From Escherichia coli (GTDB taxonomy: Bacteria > Pseudomonadota > Gammaproteobacteria > Enterobacterales > Enterobacteriaceae): DNA of 64,000 bases. The notes beneath the pieces are model-generated. The model did not search any database. It saw only the letters and a program-made list of their open reading frames with translations, and was not told the origin of the DNA. Positions 8,265 to 56,660 of the stretch are shown one piece after another; the stretch's first letter is position 1, and each line of letters starts with the position of its first letter. Where the stretch lies: NCBI RefSeq assembly GCF_965641715.1, contig NZ_OZ282453.1, one strand, 5' to 3'. Made by a program: the position numbers and the translations under genes.

Positions 8265-8737
8265 AAATACTCTTGTATTTATTGCTCTGTATGAGCAGCG
8301 GTATTGTGAATGCATCACCGGATATCACCTTCAAAGGAACTCTTGTATTGCCTCCGGCATGTACTATTAGTGATGGAAACACTATCGAGGTGGAGTTCAG
8401 GGATGTAATTATCGATAGCATTGATGGAAATAATGGGCGAGAGGTCGTGCCCTACGATATTAAATGTGATGCTGTTACACCCGGTAGTTCCTGGGATATG
8501 ACATTGACATGGATAGGCACACAAACAAGTTATGATGATGCTGCAATCGAAACTGATGTAACAGGATTAGGGATTAAACTTCGGCAAAATGGTCAGCCAT
8601 TTAGAGTAAATACACCGATACAAATTAACGCCGATACGAAACCACAATTAGAGGCTGTCCCCGTGAAGGCGGTAGATGCTGTATTAACAGACGGAACGTT
8701 TTCAGCTTCGGCCACATTACGGGTGGAATATCAATGA
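8261..8737 (+). CDS. yfcQ: Fimbrial minor subunit
   Basis: 158-aa ORF overlapping yfcR by 4 nt, with fimbrial C-terminus ...TLRVEYQ. Confidence 0.8.
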   Translation: MKILLYLLLCMSSGIVNASPDITFKGTLVLPPACTISDGNTIEVEFRDVIIDSIDGNNGREVVPYDIKCDAVTPGSSWDMTLTWIGTQTSYDDAAIETDVTGLGIKLRQNGQPFRVNTPIQINADTKPQLEAVPVKAVDAVLTDGTFSASATLRVEYQ

Positions 8738-48071: not shown

Positions 48072-48407
48072 TCATTCATGCGTTTTTTCTTCATGGTCTG
48101 TCACTTCTCTCCTGATAACTTCATTGCACAAATCAACGCACTCATTGCAGATGTAAACAGACGGTCCGGCAATCACCTTTGTGACTTCGTACTGGGATTT
48201 ATTGCAGAAGCTGCAATAAATCGTCTCCTCACCTGAAGTCCATGTTTTGCTGGTTTCGCCAGACATCAGTTGTTTGAGGTCTTTTTCACGACGAAGAACT
48301 ATCTGGCCACATTCAGCTATTTTTTGGATGTTGACATTTTCTTCTTTCGCCAGCGCTTCCATCCGCTCAATCAGTCGCTGCGCTTTTTCTCTGTCAATGC
48401 GTTGCAT
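48072..48407 (-). CDS. Stand-alone ClpX N-terminal zinc-binding-domain (ZBD) protein with a coiled-coil N-terminus and no AAA+ module
   Basis: 111-aa [42 protein letters not shown] compares with E. coli Clp[46 protein letters not shown] acts as the SD. Confidence 0.85.
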
Positions 48408-48470
48408 TGTGTCCCCCTTGTTTATGTTCCCGGGTTAAAGTCATCAGGGCGGATGCGCCCTGATGTTGTG

Positions 48471-48782
48471 TTATTCGGGAAATAACGCCCGGATATTTCC
48501 GGCCATCTGACTGGTTATCTGTGCGGTTGATACTGGCTGTGACGCGGGGCGTTCTGTCCTGGTTTGTGTCACTGATAACGCTTCATCATCAGCCCATGCA
48601 GCCAGTCGGTAAGCCTCTGCCGGATTCATTTTCAGAAGTGCCAGCCCGGCCAGAAAAGCCACGCGTTGGCCGCTTTTGCGCGCTTCTGGTGTAAGGCTGT
48701 CCAGCCAGGCGCATGCTTCACCTTCGTTCTTGACGGCGGCGGGCTTCAGATAGAAACTTATCCGTCTGGTTGGAGTCGTCAT
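48471..48782 (-). CDS. parR: ParR-like centromere-binding adaptor (RHH)
   Basis: Start MTTPTRRISFYLKP...LDSLTPEARKSGQRVAFLAGLALL parallels R1 ParR (RRTIAFKLNP...LDSIPQGERSRLNRAALTAGLALY). AAGGAG overlaps the parM stop. Confidence 0.8.
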   Translation of the reverse strand: MTTPTRRISFYLKPAAVKNEGEACAWLDSLTPEARKSGQRVAFLAGLALLKMNPAEAYRLAAWADDEALSVTQTRTERPASQPVSTAQITSQMAGNIRALFPE

Positions 48783-48786
48783 TGGT

Positions 48787-49746
48787 TTACTCCTTGTCCA
48801 TTGCGTACAGCCCATTAACCAGAGCAAACTGTGGCACCCCGTCCGCGATGAAAGTCGCATTAACTCCGCAGGCTTCGCGGATAGCGGGTGCCACAATCTC
48901 CGCCCCGCCACCGACAACCATCACCCGCCCGTAACCCGAAAAAACCGCCAGCGCGCGGATCACGCGTTGTTTCAGTGTTTCTTCCTTTTCACGAATAACC
49001 GCCATCAGGCTGGCGTAATGCGCGTCATTGTGGATGTGCTGGCGCAACCAGGCTTCATCATGGCGATGTTCGATAATGGTATTGGCGATGTGGTGACTGA
49101 TACGCATACCGTTAGTGGCCATCACCGACAGTACGGCATCGGCCATCAGGGAAACGCCTACGTGTGGATCGCAAAACACCTGGCTGATACCTGCCAGTTG
49201 CCCCTGAACCTTTGCCACATCCAGTGTGGTTCCGCCCAAATCCACAATCAGCAGGGATTCAAGCGGACTCATGTCAGCCAGTGCTTTAAAGCCAGCCGGA
49301 ATGGATTCAGGCATAACCCGTACGTTACGGATAGTGAATGTTTCGCCGTTCTGGTACTCCACCGGGCGCATAACGTTCGCTTTTTTGCGGCTGATGTTGG
49401 CCATGTCCGGCTGTGCGTTTGTGTCGAAATACTCGCTCAATGGCAGGGTGACAACCACATCCACCTCCTGTGGCGTGATGCCTGATTTGACCAGCGCGTG
49501 ATGAATGGCAATGACATTCACATCGCTGTACTGGTATTGCGTGTCGGTCGTCTGGACAAAGCGATCGCTGACCGGATCAAAACCATAGCGCACGCCATCA
49601 AGCATGTAGTTCGCGGGCTGCGAGCCACCGAACGGCGCAGACCATTCCGACTTGAAGCTGTTCGGGCTGATGGCGTTGCGGCGTTCGCCGTTCTCAGTCC
49701 ATGCCAGCTTGATGTTGGTGGAGCCGTCGTCGATACAAATTTTCAT
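48787..49746 (-). CDS. parM: ParM/StbA actin-like segregation ATPase
   Basis: 319-aa ORF. MKICIDDGSTNIKLAW...ISPNSFK...YQYSDVNVIAIHHAL...VMPESIPAG...DLGGTTLD...GGGAE is collinear with R1 ParM. Confidence 0.9.
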   Translation of the reverse strand: MKICIDDGSTNIKLAWTENGERRNAISPNSFKSEWSAPFGGSQPANYMLDGVRYGFDPVSDRFVQTTDTQYQYSDVNVIAIHHALVKSGITPQEVDVVVTLPLSEYFDTNAQPDMANISRKKANVMRPVEYQNGETFTIRNVRVMPESIPAGFKALADMSPLESLLIVDLGGTTLDVAKVQGQLAGISQVFCDPHVGVSLMADAVLSVMATNGMRISHHIANTIIEHRHDEAWLRQHIHNDAHYASLMAVIREKEETLKQRVIRALAVFSGYGRVMVVGGGAEIVAPAIREACGVNATFIADGVPQFALVNGLYAMDKE

Positions 49747-49783: not shown

Positions 49784-49871
49784 GGATTTTTAAATCCCGC
49801 TTTTGCCTGTTTTGTGCGCGCTTCATATATCGCGGCACGTTTTTTGCTCATTTATGGGATTTGTGAATCCC
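49784..49871. promoter_or_regulatory. Two GGATT..AATCC palindromes upstream of parM (candidate parC/operator)
   Basis: GGATTT-TT-AAATCC at 49784-49797 and GGGATT-TGTG-AATCCC at 49856-49871. The second lies inside the 3' end of the gpA ORF. Confidence 0.3.
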
Positions 49872-52645
49872 GTTTCTGTCTGTTTTTTGTTTCCACTGGT
49901 CAGGCCACCCCGCAGCAGGTCTGCTTTGCGGCTGGCGCGTTCAGTGGTTTCACTGATTCTCTGTGCGTGCTCTGCGTCGCGGATGGCGCGCAGCATGTCA
50001 GAAAGCACGGTAACGGGTGTTTTCATGGTGTTCTGGTCCTGCTGAAGTGTGGATGCCAGGCGTGCGGCGGCTTCAGGGTCTGATGCCCCCAGCTGTGCCA
50101 GATAGCTGGCGACCGGGTTATGGCGGATCTCCGTGCTGCTTACGCCATGATTACGGCTCAGGCGCTGCCAGAGCTGCGTGATTCGGCTGTCCGGGCGGGT
50201 ATCCGGTTTGCGTACAATTTCAAATCCCTGCGGTGCAATGATGCTGCCGTCAACGTACAGACTGCCGCCCCGTAACAGGTGCTGCATCTGTTGTTCACCG
50301 ATATGCAGGCCGAGAGATTCAGCAGACTCCCGCCATTCTTTAGCGAGTAATTCGTGGTTATCAGGCAAAGGCCGTGGCTGTTTGCGGCTCTGTGTCCAGC
50401 TCTGCATTTCATCACTGCTGTTTTTTGCCTGTTTGTCACGAAGCGAACGCATCAGCGCCCGGCGTTCGTGCCGTTTCAGTGAGCGCATCCATTCGTTCAC
50501 GTCAACGCCGTCAGGAAGCTGCGGCCACGGTGCTGGCCGTTCTTTCGACTGTTCTGTCCCGCTGTTGCCTGTTTCCTGTACACGGGGACAGTTATTGCCA
50601 CGAGTCCAAGGGGCGGCAGGGCCGCCCTGAAGGTCAAAACCATTTTCGCGGGCGCTGTCTTCCGTTTCCGGTTTACGTCTTACCAGTTTCCAGTTATCCG
50701 GATGCGTGCACACACGGGAGGATTCCCCGATGAGTGGTGACCAGATCCCGTAAATCTGTACGCTCTGTTCGCCGTAATCATTCAGCTCATCTGCGAGGTC
50801 GTAGGCGGTGCGAATCAGGTAGTCTTTGCGTGGAACAAGTACGCCGCCCTGTTTTTCAATGTAGGTGGCAAAACACCCGGCATCGGCGGCAGCGAGTACC
50901 GCATCCATTGCGTCATCTTTCAGTCGTTGCGGGCCTTCCGGGTTGCGTGCCATCTGGCTGGCAAGGCGGCGCAGTTCACGCCACACCTGACGGGAGGGGA
51001 TGCCAAAGAACTGGAACTGGCGGACCCGATGAAGGCGCGCCCAGCCGATGGCGCGCTCCACACTCTCGGCCATTGATTTTCCGGTTTCGTGGTCAACGCG
51101 TGGCTTGCCCGTTTTCGGGTCGATGCCATCCACGGCGCGGCTGTCCAGGTTCTTTCCGATGTAGGTCGCGATATAGCTGGTTGGTGTGCCTTTTGAGCCG
51201 TCGACATACTCCGCCTTAAAGCGCGGAGTAATATCATTGCCCAGCTCGTGGCGGTCTTCCTGAATGGCAATATCGCGGGTGATGGCCACGATGCTGTCGA
51301 TTTCTTCCGGATGAGCAAAGACCATCATATGCCAGTGCACGGTGCCGTCATGGTGAGGCTCCACCGTGCGGATGCCATACCAGCGAAGACCGTCGCGGTT
51401 CAGTTTTTTGCGGACCGCCGCAAAAAACGTGTTAACCAGGTAATCGCTGGAGTCGCGCATGGTGGCCCCGTTCCATTTGGGATTCGGATGACCGTTCTCT
51501 GTTGTGGCGTGGTATTTTGACGGGCAGGTGACAGTCAGAAACACCGCTTTGTCGCCACGGGCTTCGGCCAGAAGTTCCAGCCCCTTCATGGTGGCCATCA
51601 TTTCTGCCTTACGGTGAACCGGGTTACTTACTCCCGCGTAATACACCGTCTCGAGATCAATCGTGAACCCGTCTTCATTTTCCAGCATGAAACTTTTCAG
51701 GAAATCGCGTGTTTTCTCGCGCTGTGCGCGAAACTCGCTTAACGCGTCCTGGCTCAGATAGGGCGATGTTTTTCTGGAAACCAGACAGGCGGCGCGGAGT
51801 TGTTCTTCTCTCCACTCGCAACGTAACAGCCACAGTTTGCGTTTCCACCATTCTGCACAGGTCAGGCGAAGGATTGCGCCCGGCAGCAGCTCCGTGTCCG
51901 GTTCGTTCCTCTGGTCTTTGTCTGTTGTCAGTGCGTCATAATGTGGAGGCATGGCGTGCAGGTGTAACGCCATGCGGGCCAGCATCTGATACGCCTTCAG
52001 CGTTACATCCATGGTCAGTTCGCCATCGGTCGCGCCAAAGCCATCGCAGAGTTTTTCGAAGGTGCTGCTGAACATCGCCGCCGTCATGGTGGCCAGTGTC
52101 TGTATCTGGTGTTTGTTGAGCTGCGGCAGGTAAAGCAAATCGTCCAGGCGTTCGCGTCCGGCAAGGGAGCGATAACCCTGTGTCAGCCAGCGGTGATCGG
52201 TGCGCTCCAGACGTTCGAATATTTTGCGCAGGTTTCCGCGCGCGTAGCGTTCAGCCTGCCAGCTCTTTTTGCCTTTCTGACGATCGGCTTCCTGTTTTTT
52301 GCGCAGGAAGGAGAGGTGGCGAATAAGCGGATCGCGCAGATAGGACGGCAGCAGGCGCAGCGAGGCCATGGCTTCATCCACCGCGCCGCGTGCCTGTTTT
52401 CTGGCATCTCCTGCCAGTGTGATGGTTTTGTCCTGTTTTTCCTGTGCGTCCAGGCTTTTATTAATCAGGTTGCCCAGCGGCGTTGCGGAGAACGCCGCAT
52501 CAGCCATTTCCTGGCGGTGCTCGTTCTCTACCCGGTAGGCATCCAGCCAGGAGGAAAGCGCGGATTCAGGAGCGGGGATCCCCGTTCCTTCACGCCCCAC
52601 TGCGTGGCGCGGTTGTTGCCAGTCCCTGATGTACTCTGCCGTCAT
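49823..52645 (-). CDS. Rolling-circle replication initiator endonuclease, gpA-like (940 aa, long C-terminal extension)
   Basis: It contains the HUH-type metal motif (DGTVHWHMMVF) and has the position of P2 A at the end of the early operon. Confidence 0.85.
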   Translation of the reverse strand: MTAEYIRDWQQPRHAVGREGTGIPAPESALSSWLDAYRVENEHRQEMADAAFSATPLGNLINKSLDAQEKQDKTITLAGDARKQARGAVDEAMASLRLLPSYLRDPLIRHLSFLRKKQEADRQKGKKSWQAERYARGNLRKIFERLERTDHRWLTQGYRSLAGRERLDDLLYLPQLNKHQIQTLATMTAAMFSSTFEKLCDGFGATDGELTMDVTLKAYQMLARMALHLHAMPPHYDALTTDKDQRNEPDTELLPGAILRLTCAEWWKRKLWLLRCEWREEQLRAACLVSRKTSPYLSQDALSEFRAQREKTRDFLKSFMLENEDGFTIDLETVYYAGVSNPVHRKAEMMATMKGLELLAEARGDKAVFLTVTCPSKYHATTENGHPNPKWNGATMRDSSDYLVNTFFAAVRKKLNRDGLRWYGIRTVEPHHDGTVHWHMMVFAHPEEIDSIVAITRDIAIQEDRHELGNDITPRFKAEYVDGSKGTPTSYIATYIGKNLDSRAVDGIDPKTGKPRVDHETGKSMAESVERAIGWARLHRVRQFQFFGIPSRQVWRELRRLASQMARNPEGPQRLKDDAMDAVLAAADAGCFATYIEKQGGVLVPRKDYLIRTAYDLADELNDYGEQSVQIYGIWSPLIGESSRVCTHPDNWKLVRRKPETEDSARENGFDLQGGPAAPWTRGNNCPRVQETGNSGTEQSKERPAPWPQLPDGVDVNEWMRSLKRHERRALMRSLRDKQAKNSSDEMQSWTQSRKQPRPLPDNHELLAKEWRESAESLGLHIGEQQMQHLLRGGSLYVDGSIIAPQGFEIVRKPDTRPDSRITQLWQRLSRNHGVSSTEIRHNPVASYLAQLGASDPEAAARLASTLQQDQNTMKTPVTVLSDMLRAIRDAEHAQRISETTERASRKADLLRGGLTSGNKKQTETGFTNPINEQKTCRDI

Positions 52646-52651
52646 AGTGAT

Positions 52652-53017
52652 TTACTTCGTCATGCCATTCAGGGTGTCGCGGCAGACTGTAGCCAGCCGC
52701 TGAATTTCCAGCACGGTGTCTTCTGTGTCGGCATGGCGATGTGTGATGCGGATGCTGTCGGCAATCACATCGACGATTGCAGAGGATGGGCGCTGGTAAA
52801 TGCCAATAACGGACGGGGTGCCACCTTCAATGCGGTAAAGCCTGTAATTTCCCTCGTGGCTGTCAATCATGTAGCGACCATCAATAACAATCTTTCCGTC
52901 AGCGAGCTGCGGTACAGGCAGGGATTTCAGGTACATGTCATAACGATCACGCACGCGAGCGGCAAGATCACGTTCTGTGTTGAGCAGGTATTCAAGAAAG
53001 TCGTTGGCGAGAATCAT
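52652..53017 (-). CDS. Hypothetical protein (121 aa)
   Basis: The ORF is tightly packed between the 76-aa ORF and gpA. I recognise no motif. Confidence 0.6.
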   Translation of the reverse strand: MILANDFLEYLLNTERDLAARVRDRYDMYLKSLPVPQLADGKIVIDGRYMIDSHEGNYRLYRIEGGTPSVIGIYQRPSSAIVDVIADSIRITHRHADTEDTVLEIQRLATVCRDTLNGMTK

Positions 53018-53089
53018 TGCGGCAATCCTCTTGTTACAGATGTGCGAAGGCCTCCCGCCGCAAGGTGCAGGAAAGGCCCGGAACAGGAG

Positions 53090-53320
53090 TTAATGGAGTT
53101 TGTTTTGCTGCTGGATGAGCTGTTGAAGCTCGTGCAGATCATCCGCCAGATAGCTGAAAACAGAGGCGGAATAAATGTTTGATAGTGCGTGGCTGCGCTC
53201 ATGCAGCATATTGATGTGCATGATTTGCGCGACGCGTGATGCGCGGGAAAGTCTGCGGTTGATTTCAGTCTGGATGTGACGACGCTCCGCGATAGCGCGG
53301 TGTGGTTTGCGGTTTGCCAT
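53090..53320 (-). CDS. Small basic protein (76 aa) in the position of icd in P1 immI-type modules
   Basis: AAGGGG lies 7 nt before the ATG. The RBS overlaps the b2-like antisense target. I cannot confirm sequence homology to Icd. Confidence 0.6.
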   Translation of the reverse strand: MANRKPHRAIAERRHIQTEINRRLSRASRVAQIMHINMLHERSHALSNIYSASVFSYLADDLHELQQLIQQQNKLH

Positions 53321-53330
53321 GGTGTGGCCC

Positions 53331-53373
53331 CTTGTGTAGTAAGTTGTGAAAACTCACCATCCAGAGCTGCGAA
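53331..53373 (-). promoter_or_regulatory. Antisense-RNA target boxes a2/b2 overlapping the RBS of the 76-aa ORF
   Basis: The minus-strand RNA carries UUCGCAG (53373-53367) and CUACACAAG (53339-53331). These are perfectly complementary to CUGCGAA and CUUGUGUAG in the RNA candidate. The SD at 53333-53328 overlaps b2. Confidence 0.6.
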
Positions 53374-53377
53374 ACTG

Positions 53378-53458
53378 TGGGTGGCGAGACGTACGAGGTT
53401 CGCAGTACCGGCTACACAAGAACCCGGCCCGACCGAAGTCGGCCCCGTACGCCCCGCC
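53378..53458 (-). ncRNA. c4 (P1/P7) / CI (P4)-type tRNA-like antisense immunity RNA candidate, about 81 nt
   Basis: A 13-bp terminal stem (GGCGGGGCGUACG / CGUACGUCUCGCC) is followed by a 3' ACCCA. An internal C(UUCG)G tetraloop hairpin is present. A second hairpin (GGUUC/GAACC) displays CUUGUGUAG and CUGCGAA. Confidence 0.6.
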
Positions 53459-53525
53459 ATAATTCTGACGCGAAAAAAACGTGGCAATACAGTACGCACA
53501 AAAAAACCGCTGGCGCGGTTGTGCG

Positions 53526-53549
53526 CTTGTGTAGTCAGCAGGCTGCGAA
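53526..53549 (-). promoter_or_regulatory. Upstream copy of the antisense target boxes (a1/b1-like)
   Basis: Plus strand reads CTTGTGTAG-N8-CTGCGAA, so the minus-strand RNA carries UUCGCAG-N8-CUACACAAG, a second perfect target. Confidence 0.5.
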
Positions 53550-53642
53550 ACCCGGCACCCGTTTTGTGAGGTGCAGCGGAAATGTAACCTGACTGATTGC
53601 GGCATGGCAAGCGGTTTTTTTGTGTGTGCATGTTCTGGTTTC

Positions 53643-53942
53643 TTAGTGGTTCAGAAAAAAATCAAAAACCTTGTCAATGCGTTGCAGCAGCTCTTGCTGT
53701 ATTGCTTCCGGCGTTTCCGGTTCGCCTGGCGCCTCCAACGTCGCGCAGAAATCCTCGATTTCATGACGGAGCGTCAGGCGAATGGCGAGAGGTGTGGTTC
53801 TGGCGTGCTCCAGCTCATCCAGCAGCGCCAGCACAGCAGACGGCGAGAGCATTGCGCGAAACGCCAGTAATTTTTGAGGCGTTGCCATTCGTTGCAGGTC
53901 AGTCGCCAGTTCGCGTAATTCCTGGTGGTTGATGGCGCTCAT
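53643..53942 (-). CDS. Hypothetical early protein, Ead/Ea22-like N-terminal motif
   Basis: 99-aa ORF. ...LRELATD...PSAVLALLDELEHAR resembles Ead/Ea22-family proteins. Confidence 0.6.
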   Translation of the reverse strand: MSAINHQELRELATDLQRMATPQKLLAFRAMLSPSAVLALLDELEHARTTPLAIRLTLRHEIEDFCATLEAPGEPETPEAIQQELLQRIDKVFDFFLNH

Positions 53943-54184
53943 GCTCTGGCTTCCTTCAGTAGCTGGTTAAACATGTTGGTAAGTGGATTGCCGCACCCGA
54001 ACGGCATCGGGTTTATCTGGTAAGAAAAGCGACCGCCTGTTTTGCGCTCTTTTCTTATGACTGAACCGCTGCGCCAGAGTCGGCGTAACTCCGCATTAAT
54101 GGCTGTGGTTGGGGTATTCAGTGCTGCGGCGATTTCTCCACCGCTACACCCCGGATTGGCGGCGATATAGTCCAGAATGGTCAT
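53939..54184 (-). CDS. Small winged-helix DNA-binding-like protein
   Basis: 81-aa ORF MTILDYIAANPGCSGGEIAAALNTPTTAINAELRRLWRSGSV with a wHTH pattern. It has 4-nt overlaps on both sides. Confidence 0.6.
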   Translation of the reverse strand: MTILDYIAANPGCSGGEIAAALNTPTTAINAELRRLWRSGSVIRKERKTGGRFSYQINPMPFGCGNPLTNMFNQLLKEARA

Positions 54185-55938: not shown

Positions 55939-56226
55939 CTAAAGTCCCAGCCACAACAACCATGCGTCGCGGCGTTCTTTCGGTTGCTCAAAAAACGCTT
56001 TGCGCATGCCTTCGTTAAATGCTGGCAGATATACCCAGTTTTCTGATGCACGCGTCTTTACTGAACCTGGTTTCACAAAGTCAATTGTCGGTAGCTTTGC
56101 TGCGTCAATCATGGTTCTGACTGTGGATTCCTTGCGGCCGATCATCTTGGCGAATAGTTGATATGGCACCGCTTCAAGTGGATATGGTGCTACCTGAATG
56201 AACCCCCCAAGCTCTGATTCGCTCAT
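55939..56226 (-). CDS. cox: Cox-like excisionase / lytic-switch repressor
   Basis: 95-aa ORF. ...AVPYQLFAKMIGRKESTVRTMIDAAKLPTIDF...ENWVYLPAFNEGMRKAF...RDAWLLWLGL is collinear with P2 Cox (...AIPYQEFAKLIGKSTGAVRRMIDKGKLPVIDM...EYWVYLPAWNNGLKLAY...RDGWLMWLGL). Confidence 0.9.
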   Translation of the reverse strand: MSESELGGFIQVAPYPLEAVPYQLFAKMIGRKESTVRTMIDAAKLPTIDFVKPGSVKTRASENWVYLPAFNEGMRKAFFEQPKERRDAWLLWLGL

Positions 56227-56339
56227 TGTGGTAATCTCCCTAATTCGTTCGAATGGCTCAAAATGGCTTATATCGGCTTATTTGAGTGTTTTTATGTTTG
56301 TGCCCGATGTGGCATGTTGCGATGGAGGATATGCCCGAT

Positions 56340-56660
56340 ATGGCATCTTTGTCAAGCATGGGTGAAAAATTTCGCCTGATTCGTGAAGCAGAAGGTATGA
56401 CCCGCCAGGAGTTTGCGGATTGTGTTGGGCTGCCTTATGGGACGGTAACTAACTATGAGGTGAGGGGGAAGCAAGTAACAGAGGGTGCCTTACTTAAGGT
56501 TACGAAACACCCTAAATTTAAGAAGTATGCTTATTGGTTATCAACAGATGAAACGATGCCGGAGGTCGGGCAAATTTCTCCGGCTCTCTCTCTTGATGGT
56601 TCCTGCAATTCGGAGGGAGATCGCGTTTCAACCGAAAAAATCCAAAAATTATCCCGCTGA
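56340..56660 (+). CDS. Immunity repressor, P2 C-like (HTH)
   Basis: From MASLSSMGEKFRLIREAEGMTRQEFADCVGLPYGTVTNYE...GQISPAL, which parallels P2 C (...LSRQQLADLTGVPYGTLSYYE...GQIAPAL). It is divergent from cox. Confidence 0.88.
   Translation: MASLSSMGEKFRLIREAEGMTRQEFADCVGLPYGTVTNYEVRGKQVTEGALLKVTKHPKFKKYAYWLSTDETMPEVGQISPALSLDGSCNSEGDRVSTEKIQKLSR

Follow-up and report, generated by a model that had tools for sequence, protein, structure and literature searches.

A C4-family antisense RNA with an IsrK-like partner precedes an epsilon-like gene in a P2-type prophage of Escherichia coli

What occupies the 322 nucleotides (nt) that separate two early genes of the P2-like prophage in a 64-kb stretch of Escherichia coli DNA (RefSeq assembly GCF_965641715.1, contig NZ_OZ282453.1), and which gene does it gate? 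All coordinates refer to this whole stretch, hereafter the window. The gap (53642-53321) lies between an open reading frame (ORF) of 99 amino acids (aa) that ends at 53643 and one of 76 aa that starts at 53320 on the minus strand, and a first-pass annotation had proposed that it encodes an antisense RNA of the P1 c4 and P4 CI type. The gap holds a genuine member of the C4/CI antisense-RNA family together with an IsrK/seqA-like partner; it is a known phage RNA switch, well supported, and not a new type of element. We favor, with a probability of about 0.7, the reading that the gap is a three-part IsrK-C4 RNA switch, in the arrangement of P4 seqA/CI/seqC and P1 immI a1b1/c4/a2b2, that gates the gene of an epsilon-like anti-repressor. 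The module, the epsilon-like gene, a 121-aa ORF and the replication gene gpA all lie on the minus strand, and the immunity repressor lies on the plus strand. The elements of the module and the gene that follows it are:

53581-53610 (-): promoter-like site TTGCCA-18-TACATT from a consensus scan, with its +1 at ~53574, the first base of the isrK match
53500-53574 (-): IsrK/seqA-like RNA unit (Rfam isrK, RF01394), which holds a1 and b1
53549-53543 (-): box a1, UUCGCAG, perfect complement of a'
53534-53526 (-): box b1, CUACACAAG, perfect complement of b'
53459-53487 (-): second promoter-like site, TTGCCA-17-AATTAT, from a consensus scan, ending one base before the C4 5' end
53377-53464 (-): C4/CI-type antisense RNA (mature RNA ~53458-53378) from Rfam RF01695 and the minimum free energy (MFE) fold
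53420-53412 (-): box b', CUUGUGUAG, exact match
53405-53399 (-): box a', CUGCGAA, exact match
53328-53373 (-): downstream target (a2, b2 and the Shine-Dalgarno sequence), exact complements of the C4 boxes
53373-53367 (-): box a2, UUCGCAG, perfect complement of a'
53339-53331 (-): box b2, CUACACAAG, perfect complement of b'
53090-53320 (-): 76-aa homolog of P4 epsilon (E), a 'derepression protein' (PF25738 and BLASTP)

We scanned the entire window with Rfam at curated thresholds, and ran a separate permissive local scan of the gap. At curated thresholds there were two matches only in 64 kb, both inside the gap. The C4 antisense RNA model (RF01695) matched 53464-53377 on the minus strand over its full length (83.2 bits, threshold 45, model positions 1-87, E = 7e-15), so the covariance-model check that the first-pass annotation had called for came out in favor of the proposed RNA. 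The isrK model (RF01394), the counterpart of P4 seqA, matched 53574-53500 (64.1 bits, threshold 50, model positions 1-77); Rfam names this family 'isrK Hfq binding RNA'. A third model, c4-a1b1 (RF03163), overlapped the isrK match and reached 20.9 bits, below its threshold of 46.7 (P4 itself scores 44.1); on these scores the isrK model describes the upstream element better than c4-a1b1.

The 81-nt RNA has an MFE of -47.2 kcal/mol (z = -3.6), and its fold is the Rfam consensus. The terminal stem claimed earlier is present and is 16-17 bp long, the claimed 13 bp being its outer part only, and the UUCG hairpin (CCGAC-UUCG-GUCGG) was described correctly in terms of both fold and consensus. The third hairpin, GGUUC/GAACC, was dropped: it is supported by neither the MFE fold nor the Rfam consensus, both of which give GCCGG/CCGGU instead. 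The latter hairpin places b' within its 12-nt loop and leaves a' in a single-stranded junction. The RNA ends in a 3' tail, ACCCA, so that the visible shape is an acceptor-like stem plus tail, and by analogy with the family, whose members are stable RNAs of ~77-88 nt that RNase P releases and that act in trans, C4 would be a stable ~81-nt RNA processed by RNase P. The IsrK unit begins with a pair of 5' hairpins, the second of which carries a1 in its loop; next come b1 in a linker and a terminator-like hairpin (53520-53505) that runs into U7 (T7 in the DNA) and was scored as having the shape of an intrinsic terminator by the scan.

All six boxes were found by exact sequence check at the positions and with the sequences given by the first-pass annotation, and the complements are perfect both upstream and downstream. 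Neither the b' 9-mer nor its complement has a further copy in the 64-kb window. The overlap of b2 (53339-53331) with the Shine-Dalgarno sequence of the 76-aa ORF (AAGGGG, 53333-53328; ATG at 53320) was likewise as described, and the b':b2 helix extends to 11 bp, reaching into the Shine-Dalgarno sequence, if two G-U pairs are counted.

The pairing between boxes and targets was then compared among relatives. The 76-aa protein is encoded at 89-100% identity by 80 IMG/VR loci, which yielded 42 unique modules; a scan of species-representative genomes gave 6 loci, and the breadth of the sample came from IMG/VR, a phage collection and E. coli genomes. Differences among the 42 modules fall mostly within the six boxes, where 31 of 48 positions vary (mean minor-allele frequency 0.23), compared with 78 of 252 elsewhere (0.05). 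Five versions of a' and nine of b' reassort into ten (a',b') alleles (for example, CTTGTGTAG/CTGCGAA and CTTTGCTCT/TTGAGAA), and more compensated alleles in copies from Citrobacter, Salmonella and E. albertii, in lambdoid phages and in P4-like elements bring the total to more than 10. Without exception, the a1 and a2 of an allele complement its a' perfectly (7/7), and b1 and b2 match b' at 8-9 of 9 positions, with the exception of one allele that has seven matches plus a G-U pair. Mismatches between C4 and its targets averaged 0.3 of 16 for cognate combinations and 4.9 of 16 for non-cognate ones.

We counted covariation formally in 38 distinct sequences, with 500 shuffles and slid-partner controls. 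The upstream pairings (a1:a' and b1:b') were 100% paired, with 10 of the 16 pairs changed on both sides, and their covariation was far above the controls (0.683 vs 0.129 in shuffles, with 0 of 500 reaching it, and at most 0.17 with a slid partner). Downstream, pairing stood at 100% for a':a2 and 96% for b':b2, and both partners had changed in 9 of 16 pairs. Both target sets therefore co-vary with the C4 boxes in homologous prophages, which the first-pass annotation had named as a check, and base-pairing is under selection in both intermolecular pairings. Within C4, compensatory changes were seen at three pairs of the closing stem and two of hairpin 1; hairpin 2 is invariant, hence uninformative. 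The terminator-like hairpin of the IsrK unit is also invariant in the 38 sequences, and both hexamers of the promoter-like site at 53581-53610 are unchanged in 42/42 unique modules. We take this site to be a putative promoter, the probable counterpart of Gifsy-1 PisrK and P4 P_LE. The site beside C4 behaves differently: its first hexamer and spacer vary in relatives (e.g., TTGCCA to TCGCCA), and C4 probably has its main source elsewhere. A dedicated C4 promoter at 53487-53459 was rejected on this ground, as a consensus match that is not conserved among relatives, and read-through from upstream followed by processing is preferred as the source.

The compensated box alleles may give each phage lineage a private specificity that resembles heteroimmunity, as we propose from these patterns, and more than 10 naturally compensated alleles are a ready series for the study of how RNA-RNA specificity evolves. 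Two IMG/VR genomes carry co-resident copies with identical alleles, on two contigs each (L021/L022 and L036/L037); these are two pairs only, with possible assembly duplication, and say nothing on heteroimmunity.

Which gene stands behind the switch? The 76-aa ORF matched the Pfam Derepression protein family (PF25738: 32.5 bits, threshold 27; P4 epsilon scores 170 bits), and its product shares 29% identity with P4 epsilon across 66 aa (BLASTP E = 4e-9). It has 191 homologs, and those with a source name (GenBank, RefSeq) are called 'derepression protein'; a PDB sequence search with the 76-aa protein gave no match, nor did an NCBIfam search of four local ORFs. The 76-aa ORF is, on these matches, a homolog of the P4 epsilon anti-repressor, and it would be gated directly by b2 over its Shine-Dalgarno sequence. 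The closest functional analogy is thus c4 controlling ant, or CI controlling epsilon, because the ORF under the gate is an epsilon homolog and not an icd-like leader. P4 E is an experimentally shown anti-repressor that binds the P2 C repressor (PMC2995052).

The early-operon setting is that of a P2-like phage, as annotated at first: Cox matches PF10743, the repressor is of the P2 C family and gpA matches PF05840. Over the region searched (53000-53950, 951 bases), the window shows 100% identity with the P88-like peduovirus Xuanwuvirus P884B11. The other genes in question are:

56286-56660 (+): immunity repressor, P2 C family (phmmer vs P2 C, PDB 2XCJ/2L49)
52652-53017 (-): 121-aa ORF, phrog_3237, with a function-less label, starting 72 nt after the 76-aa ORF
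49823-52645 (-): 940-aa gpA-type replication initiator (Pfam PF05840, 436.7 bits), starting 6 nt past the 121-aa ORF's stop
53014-53631 (-): bridging ORF of 205 aa in the Phage_ASH/P4 eta frame (ORF list and PF10554)

The repressor of the same phage aligned with P2 C over residues 4-86 (PDB 2XCJ/2L49; phmmer E = 8e-16) and keeps a Trp, plus a Thr three residues on, at the places of P2 C Trp64 and Thr67 as counted from the alignment. The sos mutation of P2 C, which abolishes P4 E binding, affects Thr67 (PMC2995052). The likely target of the epsilon-like protein, judged from this similarity, is the phage's own P2 C-type repressor, or that of a related prophage. The 121-aa ORF showed no similarity to P4 orf151. 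A scan of the minus strand from 53320 to 52400, the stretch that leads from the epsilon-like gene to gpA, showed neither promoter-like nor terminator-like sites, and the 121-aa ORF and gpA would be gated indirectly, through polarity.

The P4 immunity region offers the nearest comparison. In P4, an isrK match (8692-8615) lies behind TTGCCT-18-TATAGT and is followed by a hairpin and T7; the C4 match, which is the CI RNA, comes next (8507-8420, 74.9 bits), with a2 at +5, b2 at +35 on GGAGG before an ATG at 8365, epsilon at 8175-7888 and a replication gene after it. The module here contains the same parts in the same order: a promoter-like site that leads to the isrK start, a hairpin with U7, a C4-family RNA, a2 3-7 nt after that RNA, b2 over a Shine-Dalgarno sequence, a bridging ORF that begins upstream of the internal promoter, an epsilon-family gene and then a replication gene. 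Because the match holds element by element in order and parts, we regard the module as a homolog of the P4 immunity region. P4, lambdoid and P88-like copies also share their spacing: a2 falls between +3 and +7 and b2 between +35 and +38, and the Shine-Dalgarno sequence and an ATG come next. There are also differences. The present phage is complete, of the P2 type, and has a C/Cox switch of its own, whereas P4 is a satellite; the ribosome binding site under b2 is here that of the epsilon homolog, whereas in P4 it belongs to kil (ATG 8365), with epsilon overlapping its end; the replication gene is gpA rather than the alpha primase of P4; and the 121-aa ORF is unrelated to P4 orf151.

The Rfam C4 family is named after c4 of P1 and P7, whose immI details are said to go back to Citron and Schuster in 1990. 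The first-pass annotation had likened the architecture to P1 immI and P4 CI, and this holds for the layout of boxes and targets and for the RNA family. Shared with P1/P7 immI are the RNA family, two boxes with two target sets, b2 over a ribosome binding site, control of an anti-repressor, and heteroimmune alleles. In P1, b2 covers the start of a small leader ORF, icd, whose translation is coupled to that of a separate anti-repressor gene. The likeness fails in that no icd-like leader exists here: b2 acts on the anti-repressor homolog directly, and another ORF begins only 72 nt later. In addition, a1b1 lies within an IsrK-type unit with a terminator-like hairpin, and the c4-a1b1 score is low.

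The IsrK-C4 pair has been recognized as the P4 immunity system (PMC3632133), and Barquist et al. called P4 seqA and CI 'structural homologs of IsrK and C4'. In Gifsy-1, Hershko-Shalev et al. described IsrK with its own promoter and a leaky terminator, and a stable processed RNA downstream, STnc1160, that depends on the isrK promoter (PMC4825925). The isrK/orf45/anrP region of Gifsy-1 resembles the present module in having IsrK with a promoter and a leaky terminator, a complementary RNA downstream and an anti-repressor gene next. That study stressed activation by IsrK and treated the C4 region as a small ORF. Rfam matches to isrK and C4 in a Gifsy-1-like arrangement were also found in ST64B and other lambdoid phages; in mEp460, ST64B and a Stx2a phage they lie between a cII-like gene and the replication genes. 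The lambdoid module sits within an annotated ORF of 383-385 aa in which residues 117-213 match Pfam 'Ash' and residues 223-308 the Rha anti-repressor domain. Lambdoid copies thus differ from the present one: their module is embedded in a long ORF that continues into a Rha-type anti-repressor, whereas here the anti-repressor is of the epsilon type and in another frame. We found no paper on the module in P88-like phages.

The gap had been called non-coding. Its length was given correctly and it lacks a codon signature, but the 205-aa bridging ORF (53631-53014) runs through it on the minus strand. This ORF starts 12 nt past the stop of the 99-aa ORF, upstream of the +1 of the internal promoter-like site, crosses IsrK and C4 with an in-frame AUG at the C4 5' end, continues out of frame through the epsilon-like gene and finally overlaps the 121-aa ORF by ATGA, so that both untranslated gaps are filled exactly. 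The chance of the frame being open throughout is ~8e-4 in the window. Of 54 unique relatives, 48 have the frame open, as do P4, lambdoid, Citrobacter, Salmonella and O157 copies; the lambdoid ORF overlaps the genes on both sides by ATGA, and the P4 counterpart is 8812-8168, of which the last 65 codons are kil. The frame is conserved yet without codon-level selection, so translation itself may matter and not its product. This suggests that transcripts from an upstream lytic promoter escape the RNA gate through translation of the bridging ORF. Forti et al. in 1995 reportedly described P_LL/eta vs P_LE/kil of P4 in terms of the same bypass idea. Citrobacter phage Shae_phiSM has an extra 183-aa helix-turn-helix gene (L091, 2823-3374) between the 99-aa (Ead/Ea22-like) ORF and the module, and its bridging ORF starts right after the inserted gene.

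Under the favored reading, transcription from the internal promoter-like site would begin at ~53574, and most transcripts would end at the hairpin with U7 to give a ~75-nt IsrK-like RNA that carries a1 and b1. Read-through transcripts would carry C4, whose excision, expected to leave an RNase P-type 5' end, would let it accumulate as a stable ~81-nt RNA. The two single-stranded boxes of C4 would pair with a2 and b2, and translation of the epsilon-like gene would be blocked because b2 covers its Shine-Dalgarno sequence. Loss of translation together with Rho-dependent polarity would then silence the 121-aa ORF and gpA on transcripts from the internal promoter. The a1b1 segment of IsrK would compete for the C4 boxes, in cis or in trans, and the IsrK:C4 balance could therefore set a threshold for release of the anti-repressor, as has been demonstrated for IsrK/AnrP in Gifsy-1. 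Once made, the epsilon-like protein would act on the phage's own P2 C-type repressor or on that of a related prophage. On transcripts that start at the upstream lytic promoter, ribosomes would follow the bridging ORF across the terminator and the C4 target sites, and these transcripts would so escape the gate, whereas transcripts from the internal promoter would be gated because they lack its start codon. Promoter use, partial termination, C4 processing, the translational block, polarity, IsrK competition, the anti-repressor target and the bypass are all steps that we predict.

Several points weigh against this reading. Promoter activity, terminator leakiness, processing and RNA stability are predicted from consensus scans and homologs; the c4-a1b1 score is below threshold; and the epsilon-like protein shares only 29% identity with P4 epsilon, and its target as an anti-repressor is predicted from that similarity and the repressor alignment. 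The bridging frame is broken in one E. albertii copy (L084), and substitutions among relatives showed no codon periodicity in the RNA region and no codon-level selection on the bridging ORF; since out-of-register sequences inflate the substitution counts in the RNA region, only the periodicity and the result for the epsilon overlap were used. In Gifsy-1, experiments support activation as the outcome of the IsrK element, and this activation persisted when the C4-like RNA was over-expressed (PMC4825925), so that net repression by C4 is not guaranteed here. In P4, the reported output is transcription termination and not a pure translational block (as summarized in PMC4825925 and PMC3632133).

The last point can be taken further. 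If the switch worked as described for P4, C4 bound to nascent a1b1 and a2b2 would end transcription early, and the main output would be transcription of gpA. The element-by-element homology to the P4 immunity region is in line with this, as are reports that P4 CI RNA acts via seqA and seqC on termination (PMC4825925, PMC3632133), and the scan showed no separate promoter-like site for gpA, which lies downstream. However, the scan found no intrinsic terminator-like site on the minus strand downstream of C4; any termination would consequently be Rho-dependent, most simply as a result of the blocked ribosome binding site, and would be an extension of the favored model. As a separate account we consider termination possible, though on the unlikely side.

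Activation in the manner of Gifsy-1 is, as a complete account, unlikely. It would have a1b1 pair in cis with C4 and silence the message, free IsrK open it in trans, and C4 serve mainly as a cis structure. The MFE fold of the 275-nt read-through RNA does pair a1b1 with a'b' in cis, like 'structure A' (PMC4825925), and the full-length isrK match, the promoter-like site and the terminator-like hairpin also speak for it. In Gifsy-1, IsrK in trans activates translation of the anti-repressor, raising it >100-fold, and the isrK promoter is needed for prophage induction (PMC4825925). However, activation does not account for the perfect complementarity to C4 that a2 and b2 keep throughout the alleles, nor for the position of b2 over the Shine-Dalgarno sequence, a pattern that is the signature of direct C4 pairing with a ribosome binding site as in P1 and P4. 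The two modes are compatible, and the descriptions of Gifsy-1 (activation) and P4 (termination) are variants of one machine, not true alternatives to the three-part switch.

A protein reading of the gap, in which a 205-aa Ash protein is encoded and the RNA features are incidental, is highly improbable. The bridging ORF matched Pfam Phage_ASH (PF10554) at 26.5 bits (threshold 26), the PGAP label over the module is 'similar to ash family protein', and the ORF is open in most relatives. Substitution patterns, however, led us to reject this reading: besides the missing periodicity in the RNA region, it is the epsilon frame that carries the coding signature where the two frames overlap (third-position substitutions 33/70; 33 synonymous vs 35 non-synonymous), compared with 20 synonymous vs 49 non-synonymous for the Ash frame in the same overlap. 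Furthermore, substitutions cluster in the six boxes, which change together as base pairs, and two independent covariance models fit at full length. Weaker still, to the point of being negligible, is the idea that the module is the decaying, now functionless remnant of a P4-like insertion: it is homologous to a satellite's module and sits inside a helper-type phage, but it occupies the same position in the active phages P88, phiSM and P884B11 and in 1,152/5,426 complete E. coli genomes, with three-way compensation essentially perfect over >10 alleles and promoter-like hexamers that never change in the 42 modules.

The label Ash deserves a note of its own. PF10554 also matched the old 'cI protein' coding sequence of P4 (L002, 8168-8584) and lambdoid Rha ORFs (L089, 2141-3292), and it did not match P4 epsilon, which belongs to PF25738. 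A census of P4-like satellites took PF10554 as its 'epsilon' marker (PMC8628076). Here, Ash matches the translated IsrK-C4 region and not epsilon. The 341-nt module is present in those 1,152 complete genomes (21%) in one to four copies each, with more than one copy in roughly 110 of them, and in the records inspected the features under it were proteins only, or 'similar to ash family protein', with no RNA gene listed; in the O157:H7 copy, which has the same operon, the gap is unannotated. Labeling the module as an RNA switch that precedes an anti-repressor would correct the annotation in about one-fifth of complete E. coli genomes, including O157:H7.

Taken together, the data allow a wider proposal, which we put forward as tentative. 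P88-like (Xuanwuvirus) phages may use an epsilon-type anti-repressor under a hypervariable IsrK-C4 pair as their own RecA-independent induction switch, and also against related prophages; a superinfecting phage with another allele but a compatible anti-repressor could induce the resident, and this would drive diversification of the boxes. The translate-through bypass by the bridging ORF would be common to P4, lambdoid and P2-type phages, and the cassettes of P4 and of helper-type phages would share an origin. Strain DH5alpha is recA1. Phage phiSM is released spontaneously, even from DH5alpha lysogens (PMC6456863), and given that genotype its release looks RecA-independent; P88 could be recovered after treatment with mitomycin C (PMC5285337). 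For non-SOS P2-type prophages, the module suggests a concrete and testable induction route. It is of interest for an epsilon-type anti-repressor under an RNA gate in a helper-type phage, for its rich allele series and for the gap in annotation.

Some further observations concern relatives and neighboring genes. In O157:H7 17B6-2 (L093, 2772-3678, compared with 55939-56660 of the window), the same early operon and module occur with another pair at the repressor and Cox positions, a 134-aa regulator and a 67-aa DNA-binding protein. Protein immunity and RNA specificity hence appear to reassort independently. One record labeled Vagococcus sp., a Gram-positive genus (L085, NZ_JBQPOM010000071.1), contains a typical enterobacterial P88-like early region with the module, and its assignment is probably the result of contamination or mis-binning. 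In the window, a ParM-type actin-like segregation ATPase (48787-49746, minus strand; PF06406 and PF21523) follows directly after gpA, and an ORF at ~48470-48785 comes after it, at the place where related records have a small 'plasmid partitioning/stability' protein. Such a pair would give a P2-type phage a plasmid-style partition, recalling the plasmid state of P4. Beyond it, a 111-aa ORF (48072-48407, minus strand) has a C-terminal motif that we take to resemble strongly the N-terminal zinc-binding domain of ClpX.

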